A stretch of DNA of 32,000 nt, taken from Candidatus Jordarchaeales archaeon (GTDB lineage: Archaea > Asgardarchaeota > Jordiarchaeia > Jordiarchaeales > Freyrarchaeaceae). The notes under the pieces were generated by a model that did no database searches, was not told the DNA's origin, and was given only the letters and a program-made list of their open reading frames with translations. The DNA lies in contig JAWCFL010000012.1 in NCBI GenBank assembly GCA_038858525.1, forward strand, positions 1 through 32,000. Direction: 5' to 3'. Below are positions 4,061 through 27,656 of the stretch, in pieces (the first letter of the stretch is position 1; every line of letters starts with the position of its first letter). A program made the translations under genes and the position numbers.

Positions 4061-5557
<1,497 letters not shown>

Positions 5558-12537: not shown

Positions 12538-12912
12538 TTATTCTTCTTCGAGTAGCCTCTTAACTTCTTCTGATACGCGCTTTAAGACCATGAGTATTAG
12601 TCCTAAGTTCGCATTGCTTCTTGCAAGAACCGTTAACAAGGCACTTTCTCCAGCACCCTTAATGATCACGTAGCCTAAGTCTCCCTGCAACAGAACTTGC
12701 TGCAACTTCCCTCTAACTAATTCATTGCTGACCTTTTCTGAGACGCTAAGAATGGCTGATGCCATAGCGGCAACAACAGCGTCGTCGACCTCCTGAGGCA
12801 TGGCTGACGCTATTGGGAGCCCCTCCGTGCTGACCACCGCGCTAGCCTCTATGCCGGGGGTTGTAGCCTCCATGTTTCGAAGCAGCTCCAAAAGTTCATC
12901 GATCTTTGTCAA
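12538..12912 (-). CDS. Roadblock/LC7 (MglB-like) domain protein
   Basis: PGIEASAVVSTEGLPIASAMP..VAAMASAILS..GDLGYVIIKGAGESALLTV, the classic roadblock pattern. Confidence 0.9.
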   Translation of the reverse strand: MTKIDELLELLRNMEATTPGIEASAVVSTEGLPIASAMPQEVDDAVVAAMASAILSVSEKVSNELVRGKLQQVLLQGDLGYVIIKGAGESALLTVLARSNANLGLILMVLKRVSEEVKRLLEEE

Positions 12913-17173: not shown

Positions 17174-17581
17174 AACATCTCACCATCCCGACATCAATAT
17201 CCTCATTCTTCTCTCTTAATTTAAACCTTACCGGAAGAACCTAGCTCACTTTCAAACCGTTTTTCTCAAGCTGACTCTAAAAACCAAGTATTTCAAGTTA
17301 TAGAGACTGCTTAATCTTAGCTGGAAACTCCTGATAACCTTGAAGGCTCCTTTGATAGAGCCCTCAATTAAATTTGGAGAAAAACTCAGCAATCACACAG
17401 AACTCATTTTTAAGTATTTCTGGTTTGGGCGCTTACAATATTCTTCTCATTTCCGCTATGGAGAAGATTCAGCAGTCGTTTTCGTTTCTTCTCCACTTAA
17501 ATTACCTTCTTTTAATTTCCCTCTAAGCCGTACTGTTTATTATTCTATGTTTTGTTCTGCAAGTTTTCCACTAATGCGGCC

Positions 17582-19180
17582 CTATGATTCATTAAGCACG
17601 TTGCCCTCCACGAGCTTGTCTCCTAAAATATTTGTAACTCGTACTCTGACTATGTCTCCTATTGATGTGGCACCTGAAAGAATTATGGTTGGTCCCTCTC
17701 TTAGTGGGTAGCCTACAAGTCTATCCTTGAAGTTCCCCCTCCCTTTTTCGGCAACCACGACGTCGATTACCTTGCCAACCAGCTTCTTCTTCATTGCCCT
17801 GTTAATCTTTATCGCTTCTCTGACAATTATGCCTCCAGCCTTACTTCTAGTTGCAGGAGGTGCCTCCTTGAATCCTTCAAAAGCAGACATTGGGAGGGGT
17901 TTAAACCTGTAAACAGTTATCTTTTCTGCTCCAAGCCTCGCCACTTCACGCATCATTTTTACTGTTTTGCGGGCTGACTTAAGGGTTTGACCAGGAAGAC
18001 CGTGAATGAAATAGACGTAGGGACGAAGCCCTTTCTTCACAGCTAAACTTACAGCCCCTAGAGTCTCGCTTGGAGTTGAGGGGCGCCCTAGGGCGGAGGC
18101 GTGATCCATGTCGCCTGTCTCTCCTCCGAGGTGTATCGTTGAACCAGGGAGGTATTCTGATATTATTGATGCGGCTTCCTCTGTGAAAAGGCATGGCTTA
18201 GCGTTCTCGACGCTCACGTAAACTTTACTTCCCGCTAAGTCCTTCAAGTTTGAAAGCAGTTCTTCTATACGGTCATAGTTCGGCTCTGGATTCCGTGGAT
18301 CGGATAATGGACCGCCGCCAACCCGTTCATCTCTATGGAAGTCTAGGAAGCAACTTGCCCCCAAGTATATCCTTCTCACGCCTTGCTCTAGGAGCCCTTC
18401 GACCTCACTTAAGATGCTTTCCACGTCTCTGCTTCTTGGAGGACCGTATACGTTGGGAACTGAGCAGTAGCCGCATCCAGGCGGTATATTGGCTGGGCAC
18501 GTAAGCCGGTCTTTTAAGGGTCCACTGGTGCACCGCCCGCACTCAACACATCTTCTTCCGTCTGGTAACGGGATCCTAGTTCTGTAAAAATTAGAGCACC
18601 CTCTAACACACCACACGTATACTCTGGCGACTTTGTAGAGTGGGTAGTCCTTTATCCGTTCAACAGAGGGCTCCCAGCGGCCAGTCGTACGTCTCACACC
18701 AGAGCAGAATGACCCAGAGGTCTTGAAGGTGAAGCTGACTCCATGTATCCTTCTTAGCTCTTCTTCGTCTGGAAGCTTCCCGTCTGACAGACCCTTCGCG
18801 AACAGGTCAGCCACAGTGTCCTCGGCTTCGCCAACCAAGACCAAGTCGTATCCTCCTTGGAGAAGCTTCTCAGCCTCAAGAGATGCTGGTCCACCAGCGA
18901 TGCATACACCGCCGTTCCAGCGCTTCCAGATCCTCGCAATTTTTGTCATCGCAGGTATGTCCATGCTCATGCCACCGCACATTAAAACGTCGAACTCTGA
19001 AAGCCTTGACCTAGCCTCGAAGAATGATTCGGGAACCATTATTTTGACGGTTCCACCCATTTTTTCGAGAACGCCAGCTATAACACGCGCCCCACTACCT
19101 ATTACATCCCTTGCAAGTCCTCTAATCCCACTACCGGCGCCGGTAGCGTCAACCAGCAAGAAACGAGTCGACGTTACCAT
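17582..19180 (-). CDS. B12-binding-domain radical SAM protein with a C-terminal TRAM-like domain
   Basis: IAGGPAS, DLVLVGEAE, RGC...GCGYCSVP, PRSRDVESILSEV, GGETGD and YFIHGLPG; beta-rich C-terminus. Probable ATG at 19180 with a GAGGA SD (ORF track 19330). Confidence 0.8.
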   Translation of the reverse strand: MVTSTRFLLVDATGAGSGIRGLARDVIGSGARVIAGVLEKMGGTVKIMVPESFFEARSRLSEFDVLMCGGMSMDIPAMTKIARIWKRWNGGVCIAGGPASLEAEKLLQGGYDLVLVGEAEDTVADLFAKGLSDGKLPDEEELRRIHGVSFTFKTSGSFCSGVRRTTGRWEPSVERIKDYPLYKVARVYVWCVRGCSNFYRTRIPLPDGRRCVECGRCTSGPLKDRLTCPANIPPGCGYCSVPNVYGPPRSRDVESILSEVEGLLEQGVRRIYLGASCFLDFHRDERVGGGPLSDPRNPEPNYDRIEELLSNLKDLAGSKVYVSVENAKPCLFTEEAASIISEYLPGSTIHLGGETGDMDHASALGRPSTPSETLGAVSLAVKKGLRPYVYFIHGLPGQTLKSARKTVKMMREVARLGAEKITVYRFKPLPMSAFEGFKEAPPATRSKAGGIIVREAIKINRAMKKKLVGKVIDVVVAEKGRGNFKDRLVGYPLREGPTIILSGATSIGDIVRVRVTNILGDKLVEGNVLNES

Positions 19181-19503
19181 CACATCATCCTCGTTAAAAA
19201 GGGAGAGAGTAAAAAGTTTTAAAAGTAATTTGAGAAAGTAAGCCGCCACCGCTAGAACTTTCGTTTTACCCTGCGGAGACAGTGAAACACGAGCCGCACG
19301 CGTCGCCAGAGAAAAAAAATAGGGGCTCATTTTTGAGGCATATGTATGCGTTTCTCTCAGGGGACGATAAAGTTGAACTTTGAGTTGTCATGAGCAAATT
19401 TTATTAAAAATTAAAACAACAGTATAACCTAAAATTTTCGTGGGGGAAACGCCGCCCTCTCGCAGAGAACTGGTTGGAGGAAGCATTTTTGTCGCGAAGA
19501 GGT

Positions 19504-22134
19504 ATGAGTACCATTGAGGCTTTGAGGATTGCTGATTTTTCCGTTCTTGGATGCTCAATAGGCGAGGAAAACTTTGGCTTCTCGGTGGGCCCCATGGGTC
19601 TCAGCAAGCGTGACGCCGAGAAACTTGCATCTGAGGTCGCAGAAGCGATACACATGCTTAACAACTTGCTTTTGGAGGAAAGCGGGGTTAAACTAGACTA
19701 CGCGGAGTTCGAACTGGTTAGCAAGGAAAAAGGCAACCTCCCCGAAGCAATGATTTTTGCTACAGGTGGAGGAGGAGAGGAAACCAACTTCATAGTGCTA
19801 TTGGAGCATGAAAAGGGGTTGGTTGACGTCTTTAAAATTATAGGAGTTGCCAATGACGTCATAAGTAAATTGAGAGACGTCGCGTTTGCGTGTAGAGCTT
19901 CAGGACTGAAAAAGGAAGAAGAAAAAGAGGTGCTGCGGAGGTTTGTGGAGCGATTCACGAGAAAGATATACGGTGAGGCCTCACAAAAAAAGTATAGGGA
20001 AAGGTATGCTAGAGACCTCTTGACACATTTAAAGATAACGAGCGGCTTGAGCGTTGAGGGACGTATTGAAGTCGATTATGGGGTTAAGCCGCCGAGGCTT
20101 AACTCGCGGATAGATAGAATGTCCTTTGAGGGGCACTCTGACAGCTTAGAGTACCTTAAAAGCTTGATATTCACTAAGACCGCGCTCGAGGTGCTTGCAG
20201 GCGACGTCGCACTCATCGGTAGGAAAATACTTTCCCTTATAAACGATTACACTGTGGATGCGGTTGAAGAGGATGTCGCTTTGCGTCTAGCTGAATCTTT
20301 TTGGTCTCGCGTTAAGCCTGGCTCCCTTAAAATCGAAGAAATAATGGAAGAGGCGAAGTTTTTCGTGGATGAGGCGAGGGAGGTATTTAGGAAAGTGGAA
20401 GAAGATGTTAACGCGATAATGCATTCCGGGGGGAGGCGGCCGTTAAAGCAACATTTAGATGCCGTTGAAGGTAGCGGCTTAGCCTCTTGCTTTAAAGATA
20501 CACTGGCTAAACTCCTCTCCGGGAGGGTTCTTGAGGAAGAAGTATGGGGGTGGAGCCTTAAAGATGAGCTCACGTCCTTCTTGGAGCACGCGGATAGAGG
20601 GCTGAAAACCTTCGAGAAGGCCTTATCCGCCTTCATGTTTATGGTCGCTGAGAAAGAAGCCATAAAGAGAATCCTCGAGGATTACGTCAAACAAGTGGTT
20701 GACCCAATCCGGAGGATCATGATTAAGACTTACATCGAAAAAATAGGAAAGAGGTTGGAGAGCTTCATTGAAGATAGAAGTTTGGGTGTACCTGTCAGCT
20801 GGGACATAGCCATTTTTAGAGGAAAAATTAAGGAGGACCTTGCTTCTCAACTGGAAGTGGGGGTATTATTCTCCACGGTTGAACTGTTGGAAATAACGTT
20901 TAACGGGTTTATTTCAGAGGTTCCCTCGGAGTTGCGGGTTAAAGTTGAGGAAGTTTACCGCGACATGAAGGAGCACGTCTCCGAAGTGGTGCCAGGGCTC
21001 GCGGACTACCTTCTCAGCCACGACGTTTTTAAGGCCTTTTTAGAGCAAAGCCAGGTGGTTGTTTCCCCTGAAGAGTTCTCCCGAAAATATTTTGATTTCG
21101 TCTCGAGGGACATCGAGGAGCTTCCGAAGTGGAAGAGTCTAGCTAAAACGTGGCTTGAAGCGTTCGCCTCAAGCTCTAAGAGCGTAACTAGCGCATATAG
21201 GCTTGTCGCCGACTTCGTCGAGTTTGTGAATAAGCTTAGGGACGAGGAGACTTCTACTGAGAAACCCAAGGAACTACTTGAAGCAAGAGTTAAGGTGCAG
21301 CAGGAAAAGGTGGACGTATTAGCGAAGAAGCTCTCAGAACTCAGCAATAAGAGGACGAGCATCGAGAAGCAAATAGACGTGTTGCAATCCCAGCTGAGCT
21401 CGGCTAGTCTCGTAGAGAAAAACCTGAAGATGGATTACGGCATCAACATTGCGACACTCAAAGAGCTAAGAGAAACCTTAGAAGCCAAGAAAAGAGAGAT
21501 GAACGAGATCGAGCAGAAACTGTCATCAGTAAGGGGCGCCGAAGCAGACGCCGCTCTGCAAAGGAAAAGCAGGTTAGAGGAAGAAATAAGAGAGATTACT
21601 GCTAAAACGCAGAAGCTGGTTTACGAGGTTGAACGGATAGATAGAGAGTTAAGCGAAACAATAAGTACTAAGGAGAGGTTCATGAACGCGTTAAAGCAGC
21701 TTCACGCGGACCTTGAAGAAGTAGCAAACCAGATATCGGCTACAAATGCCGAGATAGAGCGGGAAGAGGCGGTTAAAGGTATCTACGTGAAGTTCCTAGA
21801 AAGGTACTCTCACACCTTAGAGGAGTTGCTGTTCATTTCTCACATGTTAAAAGCTGAGGTTCTCGCCTTTGCACGGGATAAAATATCGACACTCACTCCG
21901 TCGATTGTTATGGAGGAAAGCAACCTTAACGAGTTTAAGGAATACGTCAGACGGATCTTTCTTAAGTCCTTTAGCTACGTACTCTTGAGGCCACTAAGGG
22001 TTCTACTTTCAAGCTACGAGAAAACTAACCTTAACTACATTGCCATGTATAGCTACCCGAGTGATGAAGCCTTCAGGATGACTATAGGAAACAATTTTCT
22101 TAGTCTTGGAGAAGAGGGAGGAAAGGAGGGTTAA
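19504..22134 (+). CDS. Hypothetical 876-aa protein: putative longin-like N-terminal domain, helical core, long coiled coil
   Basis: Long ORF; GAGGT SD before the ATG at 19504; heptad-rich E/K/L segment at about 21270-21800; no catalytic motif recognised. Confidence 0.75.
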   Translation: MSTIEALRIADFSVLGCSIGEENFGFSVGPMGLSKRDAEKLASEVAEAIHMLNNLLLEESGVKLDYAEFELVSKEKGNLPEAMIFATGGGGEETNFIVLLEHEKGLVDVFKIIGVANDVISKLRDVAFACRASGLKKEEEKEVLRRFVERFTRKIYGEASQKKYRERYARDLLTHLKITSGLSVEGRIEVDYGVKPPRLNSRIDRMSFEGHSDSLEYLKSLIFTKTALEVLAGDVALIGRKILSLINDYTVDAVEEDVALRLAESFWSRVKPGSLKIEEIMEEAKFFVDEAREVFRKVEEDVNAIMHSGGRRPLKQHLDAVEGSGLASCFKDTLAKLLSGRVLEEEVWGWSLKDELTSFLEHADRGLKTFEKALSAFMFMVAEKEAIKRILEDYVKQVVDPIRRIMIKTYIEKIGKRLESFIEDRSLGVPVSWDIAIFRGKIKEDLASQLEVGVLFSTVELLEITFNGFISEVPSELRVKVEEVYRDMKEHVSEVVPGLADYLLSHDVFKAFLEQSQVVVSPEEFSRKYFDFVSRDIEELPKWKSLAKTWLEAFASSSKSVTSAYRLVADFVEFVNKLRDEETSTEKPKELLEARVKVQQEKVDVLAKKLSELSNKRTSIEKQIDVLQSQLSSASLVEKNLKMDYGINIATLKELRETLEAKKREMNEIEQKLSSVRGAEADAALQRKSRLEEEIREITAKTQKLVYEVERIDRELSETISTKERFMNALKQLHADLEEVANQISATNAEIEREEAVKGIYVKFLERYSHTLEELLFISHMLKAEVLAFARDKISTLTPSIVMEESNLNEFKEYVRRIFLKSFSYVLLRPLRVLLSSYEKTNLNYIAMYSYPSDEAFRMTIGNNFLSLGEEGGKEG

Positions 22135-22137
22135 ATT

Positions 22138-24504
22138 TTGGGGGTTTCAACGCACAGGGACGTATTAAGAGAGGTTGCGCCCGGCTTCGCTGTTAGGCAG
22201 GCTTTAAGTAGCTTCTTAGCCTCAAGATCCAATTGGCCTCAACTTACGGGGATCGTGGGGGAGCAGGCGACTTTACAGGAGTTTGTTAAAGCTGCAATGG
22301 CCATCTACGTTCATGGCTACATTGGAGTGCGTACTATACCGCCAACATCTAAGGAGGCAGCCTCTGAAACAGCTGCTGAAAAAGAGCTTAAAGACATATT
22401 CGGTGAGGTTTCCGAGTTACTGAAAGATGACTTCCGGATGGAGATAGAGGTTCTAGAAAAGAAGGTGGATGTTGAGCTGTCAACTCTGAAAGCCAAGCTC
22501 TCCAAGAAAGAGGAAGAAGTAGAGAAGACCATAACCCGGCATCTGGCAGAGCTGTCCACCAGCCCCTCTCGAACTCATTTAATAGATTTCCTAGGTGATT
22601 TGCTGGGCATTTCATATAAATTCAGGTCGGAGTTTATAAAAATGACATATGGGCTGAAGCCGTTATCTATTGAGCTTGAAGAGGAGGTCAGAAAACCTCA
22701 TGAGGAGGAGTGCGTGGAGATTTCGACGCATCTCAGAGTCAAAAAGGAACTTGGGTTAGTGGAGGGCGGAGAATTAAACATTAAAGATTTGAAGCAGCTG
22801 TCAAAGAACATAGCTTCGCAAGCTCTTAGCCATGCACCGAAGGATGAAGGAGACTTAAAGCTTTACGCTGAAGCATATGAAGTAAAGCTTCAACTCGTGA
22901 AAACGCTCAGAGAATACTCGTCTAAGAAGGCGAGTTTAAGCGAGTTTTTCAACAAAATACTTGAAAAAGTTCTCTCTTACCTGAAGAGCAAGGCGCATGA
23001 CGATACGCTTCTCCGTAGAGCTTTCTCGTCTCTCGTCGGGCATCATGTAGGAGAAGAACCCGAAGTCAACTTCGAAGCGCTCAAAATGACGCTTTCAGGT
23101 GGTGGGGCATACAGTAAAATTATGGGTAAACTTGGCGAGCTCGGAATAGATAAGAGAGACCTTGCGTTTCTCCTAGAGAGGTGCAGGAGGCTTGAAAGGC
23201 TCAGGGATACGCTAATACGGGAGGTCATTCCACGGCTTAGAGGTAGAGGATATGCTGTTCACGGCGTTAACCTAGAAATATTCACGCTTCCACCAGACAA
23301 GCTAAGCGGCCTAGATGAAGCAGTAATGAGAGAAATTAAAAAGTACATGTCGATCCCGCCACCCGACGAATTTAAACAACTACTAGAAGACGAGGCAAGG
23401 CTCCGGAGGATACTTGAAGCGACGGGTTTCTCTGAAATCAGCATTCTAAGGGCAACTGTGGAAGCTGAAATGGTTCTTGAAGAGATGGTCAAGCAGATTA
23501 TGAGTAAACTTTTCTTCGAATGCATGGGCCATGCTTCGCGCGTAGTGGAGCTTTATAACAGAGCTAAAAAAGACGGTGAACGATTTAAAATGCTCTTCAA
23601 GGTGATAAACGATGAAGAGGACGAAAACATCAGGTGTGTAAAGGAGGAGTTGCTCATTGAGCTACTCCTGCAAAGGCAGAAGGAAATGTGCGAGGTGTTC
23701 CCCAAACTGAATGCCGAGAAGATCTGCGGTTTCATCTGGGCCCGCCAGACAAACCGAACCCTAAATGAGGCCTTGGAGGAGATTAAGGGCACTCCAAGCC
23801 CACTTTTCTTAGGGGTTGCCGGGGCAAAGCTGAACCTCGGCTCCATGCCTCCCGTGAGCTACTCGGCGGCCTATGACCTTTCACAGAGATACTTGGAGTT
23901 TAACAGAATGCAACTGGAAGTTGTTCAGGAGGCAAGGGAAAAGGAGGCTGAAGCCAAAGAGATTGCTAAGAGAGAGATATACGAGCGAATCGACCCGACA
24001 GGCTTGCTTGAAAGAAAGATTACCATAGCGTTAAGAGCGCCGACTGGAATTGAGAAAGCTGAGCTCGAGTGGAGTGAGAAAGACACGAGGAAGCTGGAGG
24101 CCATGAGTAAAATATTCATAGGTTCCGAGATCGGAAAAACCGTTTGCCCATACTGCGCCCGAGTAGTTAAAGGTAATTCGTGCCCTGAGCATGGTTACGT
24201 TGAACCAATAACAGAAGGACCATTGGAGGCGTTAGCTAAGTTTTACTTCCTTTCCCTCAAAATCATAGAGGAGCTGACGGAGCGAAAGAGCAGGGAGCTG
24301 GGTAAGAAGATTGAATTTAGAGACGCGCTTAGAGTTGTGAGGTCCATTTTTTCGGAGTTGAGAGTGAGAGGAAAAATTTCACCTAAGAGCACGGAGAAAA
24401 ACGTGATGGAAGGCGACATGGACAGATACTTAATCCCCGCAGTTGCGAAGGAAATAGCGGAGGCTTACATGAAGGCGATAGGGCAAATCAGGAAGCTTAA
24501 GTGA
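22138..24504 (+). CDS. Hypothetical 788-aa helical protein with a C-terminal CxxC-x8-CxxH putative Zn finger
   Basis: Long ORF; GGAGG SD before the TTG; 3-nt gap to the upstream gene; CPYCARVVKGNSCPEH. Confidence 0.75.
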   Translation: MGVSTHRDVLREVAPGFAVRQALSSFLASRSNWPQLTGIVGEQATLQEFVKAAMAIYVHGYIGVRTIPPTSKEAASETAAEKELKDIFGEVSELLKDDFRMEIEVLEKKVDVELSTLKAKLSKKEEEVEKTITRHLAELSTSPSRTHLIDFLGDLLGISYKFRSEFIKMTYGLKPLSIELEEEVRKPHEEECVEISTHLRVKKELGLVEGGELNIKDLKQLSKNIASQALSHAPKDEGDLKLYAEAYEVKLQLVKTLREYSSKKASLSEFFNKILEKVLSYLKSKAHDDTLLRRAFSSLVGHHVGEEPEVNFEALKMTLSGGGAYSKIMGKLGELGIDKRDLAFLLERCRRLERLRDTLIREVIPRLRGRGYAVHGVNLEIFTLPPDKLSGLDEAVMREIKKYMSIPPPDEFKQLLEDEARLRRILEATGFSEISILRATVEAEMVLEEMVKQIMSKLFFECMGHASRVVELYNRAKKDGERFKMLFKVINDEEDENIRCVKEELLIELLLQRQKEMCEVFPKLNAEKICGFIWARQTNRTLNEALEEIKGTPSPLFLGVAGAKLNLGSMPPVSYSAAYDLSQRYLEFNRMQLEVVQEAREKEAEAKEIAKREIYERIDPTGLLERKITIALRAPTGIEKAELEWSEKDTRKLEAMSKIFIGSEIGKTVCPYCARVVKGNSCPEHGYVEPITEGPLEALAKFYFLSLKIIEELTERKSRELGKKIEFRDALRVVRSIFSELRVRGKISPKSTEKNVMEGDMDRYLIPAVAKEIAEAYMKAIGQIRKLK

Positions 24505-24524
24505 TGAGTTTTGGAGGCTGATCC

Positions 24525-25721
24525 TTGAAGGAAAAATTGTTTGAAGAGTTAGGTGAGCTTCTTCTCGGTGGCGACGAAGGGAAGGCTCTGGAGATCCTGA
24601 AAAAATTGATGGAAGATGAGGATCCGGAGGTTAAAGTGGCGTCGCTAGCAGTGGTCGACGCGGCAATGGGACGGTTCCATAAAATTGTAGAAGAAGTGTT
24701 TCCACTAGTCTTGAGAATGGCACTCAGCGACTCACACGTCTACGTGAGAGGAAACGCCTTAGAAGTAGTCGGGAAGGCGACACACCAAATGCCTGAAACT
24801 GTTGGGAAGCACTTGCCAGAAGTCGTTTCAAACATTAAGTCTCAGAGCAGTGATCTAGCGTGGAATGCCGTTGTGGCGTTAGGATGGATTGGAGGGAGCA
24901 ACCCTAAGCTTGTAGCACCATTCATGGATCAAATAGGGAGCAACTTAAAGTCTGGGTCCGAAATTGCTAGGAGCGCTTCCGCCATGGCGATAGGTTGGAT
25001 TGGTGGTGTAAGCCCGGAGCTAGTAAGAAAATACATTCCGCAGCTAGTTGAAGTCGCCGAGTCGCGTGATCTTGAAGAAGTAAGGCTCAGCGCCATAGAC
25101 GCACTGGCGTCCATCTCCCATGCCAATGCCACCTTGGTCGAAGGCTTCCTTGAAGATATAGCGTTGATCGCTCTTAGAGACGAGAACGAGAACGTAAGGG
25201 GAAGCGCCCTAGAGACAATAATAGAGATTTGCAAGCTTGCCCCTGAGAAGGCAAAGGACTTAACAGCAATCGCACTAAAAAGCGCATCAGACGAAAAGGA
25301 AACTATCAATTGGAGAATTGTTGTTACGCTAGGCTTTGTAGGAGCTGGAAGCCCTAATACGATACCTTACATGATAGCTGAGCTGGCGAAGTGGCTGAAA
25401 GAGGCGAAAAGCAGAGTTAAAGCAACAGCCACGCTAACTATAGGGTGGATTCTGGGAAATAACCCTGAAGCCTCTGCACGTGAAGCTGAGAAAGTTATTG
25501 AAGCAGTAGCGGGGCTTTTAAGGGATACGAAGCCTGAGGTTAGGAGAAGCGCCGTGGAGGCAATAGGGTGGATGAGCTCAAACAACCCTCATCTGCTAAA
25601 GAAGTACGCGCCTGTAGTAGCCGGTGTGGCGGCCAATGACGAAGATGAGGGAGTTAGAGTAAAAGCGGAGGAGATAATGGATTTCATGAGAGAAAGGATA
25701 AAAACGATGCACTTAGAATAA
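24525..25721 (+). CDS. HEAT-repeat protein (about 10 repeats)
   Basis: Repeated D/E-x-x-V-R-x-x-A-x-x-A-L/I-G units spaced about 38-41 aa apart; GGAGG SD before the TTG. Confidence 0.88.
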   Translation: MKEKLFEELGELLLGGDEGKALEILKKLMEDEDPEVKVASLAVVDAAMGRFHKIVEEVFPLVLRMALSDSHVYVRGNALEVVGKATHQMPETVGKHLPEVVSNIKSQSSDLAWNAVVALGWIGGSNPKLVAPFMDQIGSNLKSGSEIARSASAMAIGWIGGVSPELVRKYIPQLVEVAESRDLEEVRLSAIDALASISHANATLVEGFLEDIALIALRDENENVRGSALETIIEICKLAPEKAKDLTAIALKSASDEKETINWRIVVTLGFVGAGSPNTIPYMIAELAKWLKEAKSRVKATATLTIGWILGNNPEASAREAEKVIEAVAGLLRDTKPEVRRSAVEAIGWMSSNNPHLLKKYAPVVAGVAANDEDEGVRVKAEEIMDFMRERIKTMHLE

Positions 25722-25789
25722 ACAATTAAAAGGAATGCTGTTTTCGTTCTCTTTGGTGGTTGAATTTGTCGGGAGAAAGGCAGCGCGCT

Positions 25790-26110
25790 ATGAGGCATAC
25801 GAGGCAAAGGTGTGAGGTATGTGGCGGCCCCGTGTTCTTCGACGCCTCCCAAAGAGTGCGTGTCTGTAGCTCGTGTGGACTTGTTCAAAGCGGTAGAGGT
25901 AAATCCGACTTCTCCCTTAGGGACGTGATGAGCGAGCTTCAATTCACGAACACGCTCGAGGAATTAGCAGCGCGGCTTAACGCAAGTGACTGGGAAGTTG
26001 AGCGTGCGGTACTGTTAATGCAAAAAGAAGGACTTGTCGAAATTAGAGGTAACAGAGTTATCTTAACGGCCAAAGGACGCAGAGCCCTCCTTAGGGACTT
26101 GTCAGACTGA
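25790..26110 (+). CDS. Small protein: TFIIB-type Zn ribbon plus winged helix-turn-helix
   Basis: CEVCGGPVFFDASQRVRVCSSCGLV, then LEELAARLNASDWEVERAVLLMQKEGLVEIRGNRVILTAKG. Probable ATG at 25790. Confidence 0.7.
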   Translation: MRHTRQRCEVCGGPVFFDASQRVRVCSSCGLVQSGRGKSDFSLRDVMSELQFTNTLEELAARLNASDWEVERAVLLMQKEGLVEIRGNRVILTAKGRRALLRDLSD

Positions 26111-26211
26111 AGAACAGAACATTAAAAGCTTAATTTGGGGGTTAATAAGGACGCCGCCCCCTCTTCAAGTCAACAGGCTTAAAAAGGAATATGGCGGTTA
26201 AGTGACGGAGG

Positions 26212-27348
26212 CTACTTTTGTATGAGAGCTTCTTCTTTGAGGGGGAATTTTAGGTCCGAGAGAGCTTGCCTAATCGCTTTTAATGTGATGTTGATCTCGC
26301 GTTCAGTGACGCGCCCCATGTGTCCTATTCTGAAGATTTCCCCTGTAAGTTTGTCTTGTCCACCCGATATTACGACCCCGTGCTCCCTCACTTTTTGGCG
26401 AAATTCCTGGTCCTTTACTCCTTCCGGTATTTTGACAGCCGTAACAGTAACTGAGCATATTTCTTCTCTTACTGGGAAGAGCTTAAGACCCATGTCCTTT
26501 ATTCCGTCTCTCGCAAGTTTAGCTACGTGGTGATGCCTAGCTATGACGTTGTCTAGTCCTTCATCGAACATGAGGTTGAGTGCGTCCTCCAAGGCGTAGA
26601 GGAGGGTTATGGCGATCGTGTATGGAGTTTGTGGTGGCGTCTTCTCCAGGCTTTTCTTGTAGTTGACTAGGTCGAAGTAGAACGCTTTCCTCTTTGTTTT
26701 CTTGATGACTTCCCAGGCTTCATCTGAAACTGATATGAAGGAGAAACCTGGGGGGATAGCGAGGCACTTTTGGCTTCCAGCCAGGCATAGGTCTATTTTC
26801 CAATCATCAACGGGGACGTAGTCGCCTCCCATGCTCGAAATCGCGTCCACAATTAGGAGGGCGCCATGGCTCTTAACTATCTTTGAAATTTCCTCAACGG
26901 GATTTCTGACTCCTGTGGACGTTTCATTATGAGTTACCGTGACGGCTTTAACGTCGCCGTTTTCGTCCAAGGCGGCTTTAACTCTTTCCGGGTCTATCGC
27001 GTCGCCCCACTCCGACGAGACCTCTATAACCTGCGCACCAAAGACTTCCGCTATTTTCTTAAACCTCTCACTGAATTTTCCACATGTTGTACAGAGAACC
27101 TTGTCTCCCGGCTCCACTATGTTCGCGATGGCAGCCTCCATAGCTCCCGTGCCTGACGCCGTAAGTATGAAGAGATCGTTCTCTGTCCTGAAAACTTCCT
27201 TTAGCCTCTCAATGCAGCGGGTTAGAAGCGCACCTGTTTCTTTACCTCTATGGGATATCATCTGCCTGCTCATCGCTTTAAGCGTCGACTCCGCTATGAA
27301 AGTTGGGCCCGGAATCATCAAGAGTTCCTCTTTAACCAAAGGTAACAC
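26212..27348 (-). CDS. Class V PLP aminotransferase (alanine--glyoxylate/serine--pyruvate type)
   Basis: LMIPGPT, ASGTGAMEAA, THNETSTG, VDAISS, GSQKCLAIPPG and FRIGHMG. Confidence 0.93.
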   Translation of the reverse strand: MLPLVKEELLMIPGPTFIAESTLKAMSRQMISHRGKETGALLTRCIERLKEVFRTENDLFILTASGTGAMEAAIANIVEPGDKVLCTTCGKFSERFKKIAEVFGAQVIEVSSEWGDAIDPERVKAALDENGDVKAVTVTHNETSTGVRNPVEEISKIVKSHGALLIVDAISSMGGDYVPVDDWKIDLCLAGSQKCLAIPPGFSFISVSDEAWEVIKKTKRKAFYFDLVNYKKSLEKTPPQTPYTIAITLLYALEDALNLMFDEGLDNVIARHHHVAKLARDGIKDMGLKLFPVREEICSVTVTAVKIPEGVKDQEFRQKVREHGVVISGGQDKLTGEIFRIGHMGRVTEREINITLKAIRQALSDLKFPLKEEALIQK

Positions 27349-27464
27349 CCCACGGTTAAAGCACAGTGCTCAGCAAGAGCTAATAAAAATTACCTTTGCG
27401 TTTCGACCGTGAAGGTTAAAAGGGGATTATGGTTAACTGTGTCAAAACGAGCGAAGGGAGACGT

Positions 27465-27641
27465 ATGTCAGAGGTAAAGTTGCCCTTGTGTAGTAGTTGT
27501 TCTAAGCCAATTCACCCTGATAGAGGAGGCGTCAAGTTCCCCTGCCCCAACTGCGGCAAGGTAGTCATCTGGCGCTGCTACAGGTGCAGACAGCTGGGGA
27601 ACCCATACAAGTGCCCTATCTGCAATTTTGAAGGACCATAA
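27465..27641 (+). CDS. Small Zn-finger protein (DUF1610/HVO_2753-like)
   Basis: CSSC..FPCPNCG..IWRCYRCRQLGNPYKCPICNFEGP; conserved position directly upstream of EF-1beta in archaea. Confidence 0.9.
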   Translation: MSEVKLPLCSSCSKPIHPDRGGVKFPCPNCGKVVIWRCYRCRQLGNPYKCPICNFEGP

Positions 27642-27656
27642 AAGGAGGATGGTGAT

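Follow-up and report, generated by a model that had tools for sequence, protein, structure and literature searches.

The four-gene locus

The first 32,000 nucleotides (nt) of contig JAWCFL010000012.1 from a Candidatus Jordarchaeales archaeon, hereafter the window, contain four co-oriented open reading frames (ORFs) on the + strand, listed in Table 1, which an earlier note made from the letters of the DNA had read as one operon for a multi-subunit scaffold, coat or tether. We call them gene A, gene B, the HEAT gene (gene 3) and the Zn-ribbon-winged helix-turn-helix (wHTH) gene (gene 4). A and B strictly co-occur, lie next to each other and are inherited together, and they have no known family or catalytic motif. 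On balance, we favour the reading that A and B are a translationally coupled two-gene unit which, in part of Asgard, would encode a non-enzymatic heterodimeric (or higher-order) scaffold. The interface between the two proteins is predicted from structure models.

The source assembly (G000; 2.09 Mb, 92.7% complete) is a member of the Asgard phylum, and the database relatives of the target proteins are labelled Candidatus Jordarchaeales or Freyarchaeota. The window carries an archaeal 16S rRNA gene (4061–5556) together with housekeeping genes for methionine aminopeptidase, a beta-CASP nuclease, class II aminoacyl-tRNA synthetases (aaRS), a B12/radical-SAM enzyme, a class V aminotransferase, CdhB, AspRS and TruD. 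The guanine-cytosine (GC) content of the four-gene stretch, 0.45–0.49, is similar to that of its flanks; this, with the housekeeping neighbours, agrees with the earlier description of the genes as native, non-mobile and of housekeeping-like composition.

The gaps between the four ORFs measure 3 nt, 20 nt, and 38 or 68 nt. The 3-nt gap separates A from B, whose TTG start is preceded by GGAGGG at a distance of 8 nt, and the 20-nt gap separates B from the HEAT gene, which has GGAGG before its TTG start; overall, GGAGG-type motifs stand 8–9 nt ahead of the B and HEAT starts, and GGAGG/GAAGAGG are found ahead of the candidate starts of A. The start of A is ambiguous, since TTG 19474, TTG 19489 and ATG 19504 give proteins of 886, 881 and 876 amino acids (aa), respectively, and the database form is the 881-aa protein starting at 19489. 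The distance from the HEAT gene to gene 4 is 38 nt with a TTG start and 68 nt with an ATG start. An AT-rich box and a T-rich tract are present in this gap and could give gene 4 a transcript start of its own. The encoded Zn-ribbon-wHTH protein is small and basic (pI 9.2). Re-reading the ORFs and their Shine-Dalgarno-like motifs thus reproduced the organisation given in the earlier note, to which we add the alternative starts of A and gene 4. Likewise, neither transmembrane (TM) segments, sought by hydropathy, nor a P-loop/Walker A motif were detected in any of the four proteins, in keeping with the claim that TM and catalytic motifs are absent.

Table 1. Features of the A–B locus in the window, and genes adjoining A–B in other lineages.
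Feature	Position	Strand	Remarks
Candidate archaeal promoter, TATA-like AT-rich stretch 5′ of gene A	19396..19440	+	Read from sequence
Gene A, 876 aa from ATG	19504..22134	+	Head-stalk protein (model); Asgard-only family
A N-domain, alpha/beta, residues 1–165	19504..19998	+	Most conserved part of A; G25, P80 and R150 invariant
A helices a2/a3, residues 121–161	19864..19986	+	Predicted B-contact surface; includes invariant R150
A antiparallel coiled-coil hairpin, residues 587–795	21262..21888	+	Least conserved part of A; lineage-dependent length
A C-terminal alpha/beta domain, residues 796–876	21889..22131	+	Conserved; b-a-b-b-b-a
Gene B, 788 aa	22138..24504	+	All-alpha in the model, without fold match; obligate partner gene of A
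B residues 496–579	23623..23874	+	Predicted A-contact surface; E504, S554, L565 and Y575 invariant
B zinc knuckle CxxC-x8-CxxH, residues 670–685	24145..24192	+	C670, C673, C682 and H685 nearly invariant
HEAT-repeat gene (gene 3), 398 aa	24525..25721	+	Adjoins A–B in family f1 only; outside the conserved unit
Zn-ribbon + winged-helix gene (gene 4)	25760/25790..26110	+	116 aa from TTG, 106 aa from ATG 25790
Loki-type two-TM ORF after B	L066:8004-8282, L062:11834-12115, L061, L063, L067, L070, L020		
Family f2 157-aa two-TM/zinc-ribbon protein	L016:12077-12547; G008:C20:8068-8454		

Proteins A and B and their predicted complex

The AlphaFold2 model of A, built from an alignment of 35 sequences, has a predicted local distance difference test score (pLDDT) of 87.3 and a predicted template modelling score (pTM) of 0.77. 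In this model, the order of elements is b-b-a-b-b-b-a-a (residues 12–160), a beta-hairpin (179–208), a helical body (225–582), two long antiparallel helices (587–673 and 679–795) and finally b-a-b-b-b-a (800–871). Conservation peaks at residues 1–270 and 811–870 and reaches its minimum in the coiled-coil hairpin formed by the long helices. The length of this hairpin varies between lineages, from about 206–217 aa in Jordarchaeia and 151–184 aa in Thorarchaeota to 66–104 aa in Loki-/Helarchaeota, and all the other parts of A are constant in length across the family.

We fail to detect any Pfam or NCBIfam family above cut-off in A, the sub-threshold matches being coiled coils (HAUS1, SMC, Rad50), and a comparison with PDB sequences returned nothing beyond coiled-coil noise. 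Foldseek searches against the PDB gave no match at E ≤ 1e-3 for either A or B. Fold searches with the whole of A were dominated by coiled coils, those of SMC proteins occupying the top structural rows. A shape search of the Atlas with A yielded two clusters of Asgard proteins of 302–344 aa (TM score by row 0.49–0.53), which align over the N- and C-terminal parts of A alike and suggest that the two ends of A form one head. An Atlas feature search with whole A and whole B produced no usable match. In the architecture proposed here, A would consist of a globular head made of its N- and C-terminal alpha/beta domains, a helical body of constant length and a coiled-coil stalk whose length depends on the class.

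As for B, the AlphaFold2 model (25 sequences) has a pLDDT of 84.6 and a pTM of 0.69 and contains 34 helices, besides which there is a small beta knuckle at residues 668–692. The B alignment has 22 invariant columns, clustered at residues 468–584. The helical model and the nearly invariant Cys and His residues of the knuckle bear out the description of B as a helical Zn-finger protein. No Pfam, NCBIfam or PADLOC family and no PDB sequence matched B, and the Atlas shape search remained at TM scores ≤ 0.27; as judged by its model, B probably has a new, all-alpha fold. A and B are not a paralogous pair, because hhalign finds them unrelated.

The possible interaction of the two proteins was modelled by folding together A 1–270, A 796–876 and B 178–788, as three chains with alignments made for this analysis. 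The interaction prediction score from aligned errors (ipSAE) for A–B was 0.64 (0.64, 0.56 and 0.66 in the runs) versus 0.00 for the best control. Of 80 solved complexes, 58 attained this mark, as did 2 of 110 mismatched pairs; the calibration is only rough here because alignments made for this analysis and three chains were used. The runs share at least 94% of their contacts, and the pLDDT of the partner is at least 67. The modelled contact joins A 121–161 with B 496–504 and 554–579, and in both proteins conservation is higher at the interface than elsewhere in the folded parts (permutation p 0.04 in A and 0.007 in B). These values support the prediction that A binds B. Most likely, if the model is correct, the most conserved central helices of B would dock onto helices a2/a3 of the A N-domain.

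Distribution of A–B and its relation to genes 3 and 4

The survey covered 41 relatives and then 400 genomes of the Asgard phylum. Among the 400, B is present in 229 and the A N-domain profile matches in 225. Both genes occur in 4/4 genomes of family f1, 5/6 of f2, 2/2 of f26, 1/1 of f27, 14/14 of f28, 120/135 of f9 and 1/1 of f33; the remaining group has B in 79 and A in 74 of its 89 genomes. Neither A nor B was found in any further family, among them those of 31, 22, 19, 12 and 12 genomes. In nearly all carriers, the A N-domain profile has a single match per genome. Co-oriented A–B neighbours were observed in 20 of the 22 loci read, with a stop-to-start distance of −44 to +17 nt. Furthermore, the maximum-likelihood trees of A and B share the same family-level topology, ((f1,f2),(f33,f7)) and (f29,(f28,f9)), with strong (starred) support. 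This agreement is consistent with joint vertical inheritance and, since kin share history, leaves co-evolution unproven.

A search of 1.84 billion representative proteins returned 31 relatives of A, most of them 765–915 aa long and a few being short fragments. Word-based protein searches with B yielded at least six close relatives. Besides Jordarchaeia, the named members comprise proteins of about 865–890 aa from Thorarchaeota and 765–790 aa from Loki-/Helarchaeota; the named relatives from Thor-, Loki-, Hel- and Jordarchaeota are annotated as hypothetical proteins. We found no description of the A–B pair in the literature, and the earlier expectation of an undescribed protein system holds for these two genes.

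Some homologues are of unusual length. At the locus L072 (G372:C1:794000-813000) of one Thor genome, the A homologue has 1072 aa, about 200 aa more than its relatives, and the profile match of its N-domain is much weaker (E 1e-19 vs about 1e-65). The f29 locus L065 (G294:C1:1460000-1479000) encodes a very divergent A of 788 aa and a shorter B of 598 aa, both on long branches, and this B matches profile positions 313–612 only.

The remaining two genes of the window behave differently from the pair. Gene 3 encodes a true HEAT-repeat protein, as its Pfam matches indicate: HEAT_2 scores 92.3 bits (cut-off 27.7) in six stretches and HEAT 59.3 bits (cut-off 23.5), so that the original call of a HEAT solenoid is confirmed. 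The protein also exceeds the Pfam cut-offs for Cnd1 (72.5) and Adaptin_N (60.4). The Adaptin_N match covers profile positions 353–521 of 524 only, and the matches of gene 3 are partial and overlap more than 20 HEAT families, which is why we attribute the adaptin match to generic HEAT repeats. Indeed, gene 3 shares its HEAT_2, Cnd1 and Adaptin_N matches with generic archaeal and bacterial HEAT proteins of the PBS-lyase type and with adaptin and condensin solenoids; it differs from the adaptin and condensin subunits in having only 398 aa and in the position of its f2 orthologue away from A–B. The likeness to an adaptin amounts to a partial trunk match with no sigma/mu-type subunit recognised, and the matches do not identify gene 3 as a coat, adaptin or condensin subunit. 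In gene 4, the Zn-ribbon (CEVC...CSSC) and wHTH assigned earlier can be read directly in the sequence, while every Pfam match lies below cut-off.

By tblastn, the HEAT and Zn-ribbon-wHTH genes directly follow A–B in family f1 only (five genomes including the source, from two genera). In a closed f2 genome, A–B lies at 917–922 kb, about 29 kb from the orthologues of the Zn-ribbon-wHTH gene (948 kb, 39% identity) and the HEAT gene (951 kb, 34% identity), which sit beside orthologues of the window's aminotransferase and of one of its Roadblock genes. The presence of the HEAT, Zn-ribbon-wHTH and aminotransferase genes together in f2 points to an older Jordarchaeia block that came to abut A–B in f1. 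The Zn-ribbon-wHTH gene is found throughout Jordarchaeia and is unlinked to A–B outside f1. The synteny block shared by f1 and f2 aligns L077 (G006:C1:943000-957000) with window positions 24525–27348, and its f2 version has three small ORFs inserted.

These data bear on the proposal of a single coat-, adaptor- or tether-like complex that would be encoded by the four genes together and combine longin, coiled-coil, HEAT and Zn-ribbon-wHTH parts. The tight gaps and Shine-Dalgarno-like motifs, the order kept in 5/5 f1 genomes, the HEAT_2, Cnd1 and Adaptin_N matches above cut-off and the contigs from RNA libraries on all four genes would fit such a complex. However, genes 3 and 4 are unlinked to A–B in f2, Thor, Loki and Hel lineages, the Adaptin_N match is generic, and the gap before gene 4 allows its independent start. 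We regard the four-gene complex as improbable. The earlier note had taken a lack of synteny in relatives as evidence against a common complex; in relatives, synteny is lost for genes 3 and 4 and kept for A and B. What stands of the multi-subunit complex is thus the predicted binding of A to B. Its likeness to coats, adaptors and tethers is not supported, in that searches with A and B turned up no homology to eukaryotic subunits of these kinds. The HEAT and Zn-ribbon-wHTH genes would instead represent a separate Jordarchaeia block, not core subunits, which may be co-expressed with A–B.

The RNA-library contigs come from two metatranscriptomic libraries of one sediment study and are 95–100% identical to parts of all four genes, with DNA carry-over being possible. 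No contig in these libraries bridges the A/B, B/HEAT or HEAT/gene-4 junctions, so that the contigs give no support to co-transcription of the four genes. The radical-SAM (17367–18467) and aminotransferase (26542–27642) stretches have no cover, a result that is uninformative with contigs. One contig, matching window positions 26010–26395, spans the 3′ ends of gene 4 and of the convergent aminotransferase gene and differs from the window by an inserted nucleotide at 26159.

Known architectures and the possible role of A–B

The nearest architecture to A is that of SMC/Rad50 proteins: here too, in the model, an antiparallel coiled-coil hairpin would bring the N- and C-terminal domains together, a large helical partner is encoded by the next gene, as in SMC/Rad50 assemblies with kleisin and HAWK subunits, and a HEAT protein lies nearby in this genome. 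According to the corresponding explanation, A would be a degenerate SMC/Rad50-like chromosome scaffold on DNA, with B, a HAWK-like HEAT protein and a kleisin/ScpB-like wHTH protein as accessory subunits. A differs in lacking the ABC ATPase motifs and, apparently, the hinge and the zinc hook, and in having a short, variable stalk; moreover, B matches no kleisin and the HEAT gene is not a conserved partner. The motif [AG]x4GK[ST] is present in neither A nor B, and in 1 of the 35 A-family members by chance. TIGR02169 and TIGR02168 score 29–30 bits on A against cut-offs of 729 and 567, over residues 554–769 only. Without ATPase motifs and with such a stalk, A does not qualify as a member of the SMC/Rad50 family, and we judge a chromosome scaffold of this type to be quite improbable.

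A role in anti-virus defence was considered as well. Some defence systems are large, uncharacterised clusters of several genes that include coiled-coil and HEAT proteins, and PADLOC gave weak matches to JetC/LmuB for A and to HEAT-ARM/OloA for gene 3. However, in A only the coiled coil is matched (E 4e-5 at best), and B is not matched at all, so that A–B was rejected as a member of a known defence system. Furthermore, A–B is single-copy, occurs in nearly all members of the carrier families and is family-monophyletic, and the four genes have housekeeping surroundings (aaRS, beta-CASP, radical SAM, aminotransferase, CdhB) and a composition like that of their flanks. That the cluster is a defence system or the cargo of a mobile element is scarcely credible to us.

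The second architecture to be considered is the longin domain. In the model of the A N-domain, DSSP assigns strands at 12–19, 22–28, 62–73, 82–90 and 93–101 and helices at 35–60, 109–132 and 137–160. This element order fits that of a longin; the fold searches with the whole AlphaFold2 model were filled by the coiled coil. We looked for sequence support and found none: longin-type families were absent from Pfam scans of 35 A N-domains at E up to 10, the profile of the A N-domain found no longin family among PDB sequences, and PF03259 (Roadblock/LC7) did not match the A N-domains. Against 14 Roadblock proteins of the same genome, hhalign gave the A N-domain a probability of 0.5%, and the Atlas feature scores of A to Robl_LC7/MAPKK1_Int (0.78–0.82) are at chance level. 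The term longin-like, as applied earlier to A, is thus supported by the secondary-structure order in the AlphaFold model and not by any match to a longin family.

By analogy of function, the nearest systems would be the longin heterodimers (Mon1-Ccz1, BLOC-3, FLCN-FNIP, GATOR1 Nprl2-Nprl3 and C9orf72-SMCR8). They likewise consist of two large subunits that are unrelated or distantly related, A has the N-terminal order b-b-a-b-b-b-a-a, and genes for GTPases or Roadblock proteins adjoin A–B in some lineages. On the other hand, the searches gave no sequence or fold match (BLOC-3 is at Foldseek rank 19, E 0.044, TM score 0.12–0.17), A–B is without a DENN or second longin domain, and B is all-alpha in its model. 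A GP motif and an arginine finger have been described in GAP-longin proteins (PMC12290439); neither was recognised in A–B.

The genes next to A–B in other lineages were examined for hints of its role. A Roadblock/LC7 gene divergently adjoins A in f9 (four loci) and in f27, and an Arf/Rag-like GTPase gene is the next gene downstream of B in both f26 loci and comes two genes downstream of it in f2. A small ORF of 85–98 aa, encoding two adjacent TM helices and then a charged tail, lies immediately downstream of B in seven loci of the Lokiarchaeia families f9 and f28, that is, in all the loci of these families which reach far enough downstream of B. In f26, the ORF immediately after A encodes two TM helices and a charged N-terminal part, and in f2 a 157-aa protein encoded divergently from A has a two-TM hairpin at its N-terminus, a linker rich in Lys and Pro, and a zinc ribbon (CPYC...CPNC) at its C-terminus. 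Small two-TM ORFs make up 8 of 349 in the background of the same loci. The Loki-type two-TM ORF matches no Pfam family, and no homologue of it is found near A–B in the window or the Thor loci; its members share an R...NG turn and a Lys/Glu-rich tail. In the window, the Roadblock/LC7 gene nearest to A lies 6.6 kb upstream (12541–12912, − strand; PF03259, 64.5 bits), is not linked to A–B and is one of about 16 in the 2.1-Mb genome.

One explanation is that A–B regulates the small GTPases of Asgard, or serves them as effector or platform, resembling a longin heterodimer and being held at the membrane by a small two-TM partner. This explanation draws on the longin order of the A N-domain, on the Roadblock/LC7 genes beside A in f9 and f27 and the Arf/Rag-like GTPase genes after B in f26 and f2, and on the two-TM ORFs next to A–B in f9, f28, f26 and f2, compared with their low background. 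It is opposed by the lack of a sequence link to longin or Roadblock families in the Pfam, PDB, hhalign and Atlas comparisons and by a neighbourhood enrichment which is marginal and post hoc, such neighbours being absent from the window and the Thor loci. We consider it possible but doubtful. Still bolder is the idea that A–B is an Asgard-invented membrane platform, in which a longin-like head and a novel all-alpha subunit would be anchored by the tiny two-TM protein and governed by the small-GTPase and Roadblock switches that are expanded in the lineage; we hold this to be unlikely. If it were true, Asgard would possess a trafficking- or tethering-type machine without eukaryotic descendant and a cell-biological complexity of its own.

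Returning to the two-gene scaffold, several observations weigh against it or narrow what can be built on it. The A–B interface is a model derived from fragments of both proteins only. Both exceptions among the 22 loci belong to f26, where A is on a different contig from B, and tight linkage is thus not obligatory. B appears to be confined to Asgard in a search that was not exhaustive for other genomes. Two or more unrelated kinds can be told apart among the two-TM neighbours, and neither the window nor the Thor loci have them. With backgrounds of 14–23 Roadblock and 13–105 Arf-like matches per genome, the three GTPase/Roadblock coincidences compare with about 0.7 expected by a rough estimate, are weak and were noticed post hoc. 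Finally, no homologue, ligand site or catalytic motif was found that could anchor the function of A–B.

We infer that A–B serves the cell as a structural or adaptor platform of the housekeeping kind. This platform may work at the membrane with small GTPase and Roadblock modules, a role proposed because such genes recur beside A–B in other lineages. Overall, we think that a structural or adaptor platform is the most likely function, that an involvement with GTPases and membranes is possible, that SMC-like action on DNA is unlikely and that defence is very unlikely.

The mining of Asgard genomes has centred on homologues of eukaryotic proteins, and A–B is the opposite case: large proteins, well folded as judged by their models, single-copy, vertically inherited and common to four major Asgard groups, with no relative detected in the PDB, in eukaryotes or in other archaea (for B, within the limits of the search beyond Asgard). 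This makes the pair a direct target for cell biology, now that its localisation, interactome and structure can be studied in cultured Lokiarchaeia. If the GTPase and membrane leads are true, A–B would show how the small-GTPase systems of Asgard are wired to effectors; if they fail, B would still offer a probably new all-alpha fold.

The other flanks of A–B differ between lineages. In the f26 loci, a conserved protein of 549–553 aa (L064:7616-9262 and L069:7521-9179), with no Pfam or NCBIfam family, is encoded divergently upstream of B. Family c2, a neighbour of 236–326 aa in Loki loci, has no NCBIfam match and a weak PD-(D/E)XK match only (E 0.0026). The Thor flanks carry an ODP-type metallo-beta-lactamase, CutA1 and fusions of a DHDPS-family aldolase domain with a formaldehyde-activating enzyme domain (DHDPS-Fae), and the Loki flanks differ from them. 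In the Thor loci L017:3431-6339, L018:183-3252 and L071-L073, the tandem paralogous genes for DHDPS-aldolase + Fae fusions lie downstream of A–B, and in f2 a gene for MfnB (4-HFC-P synthase) stands at the position of these fusions.

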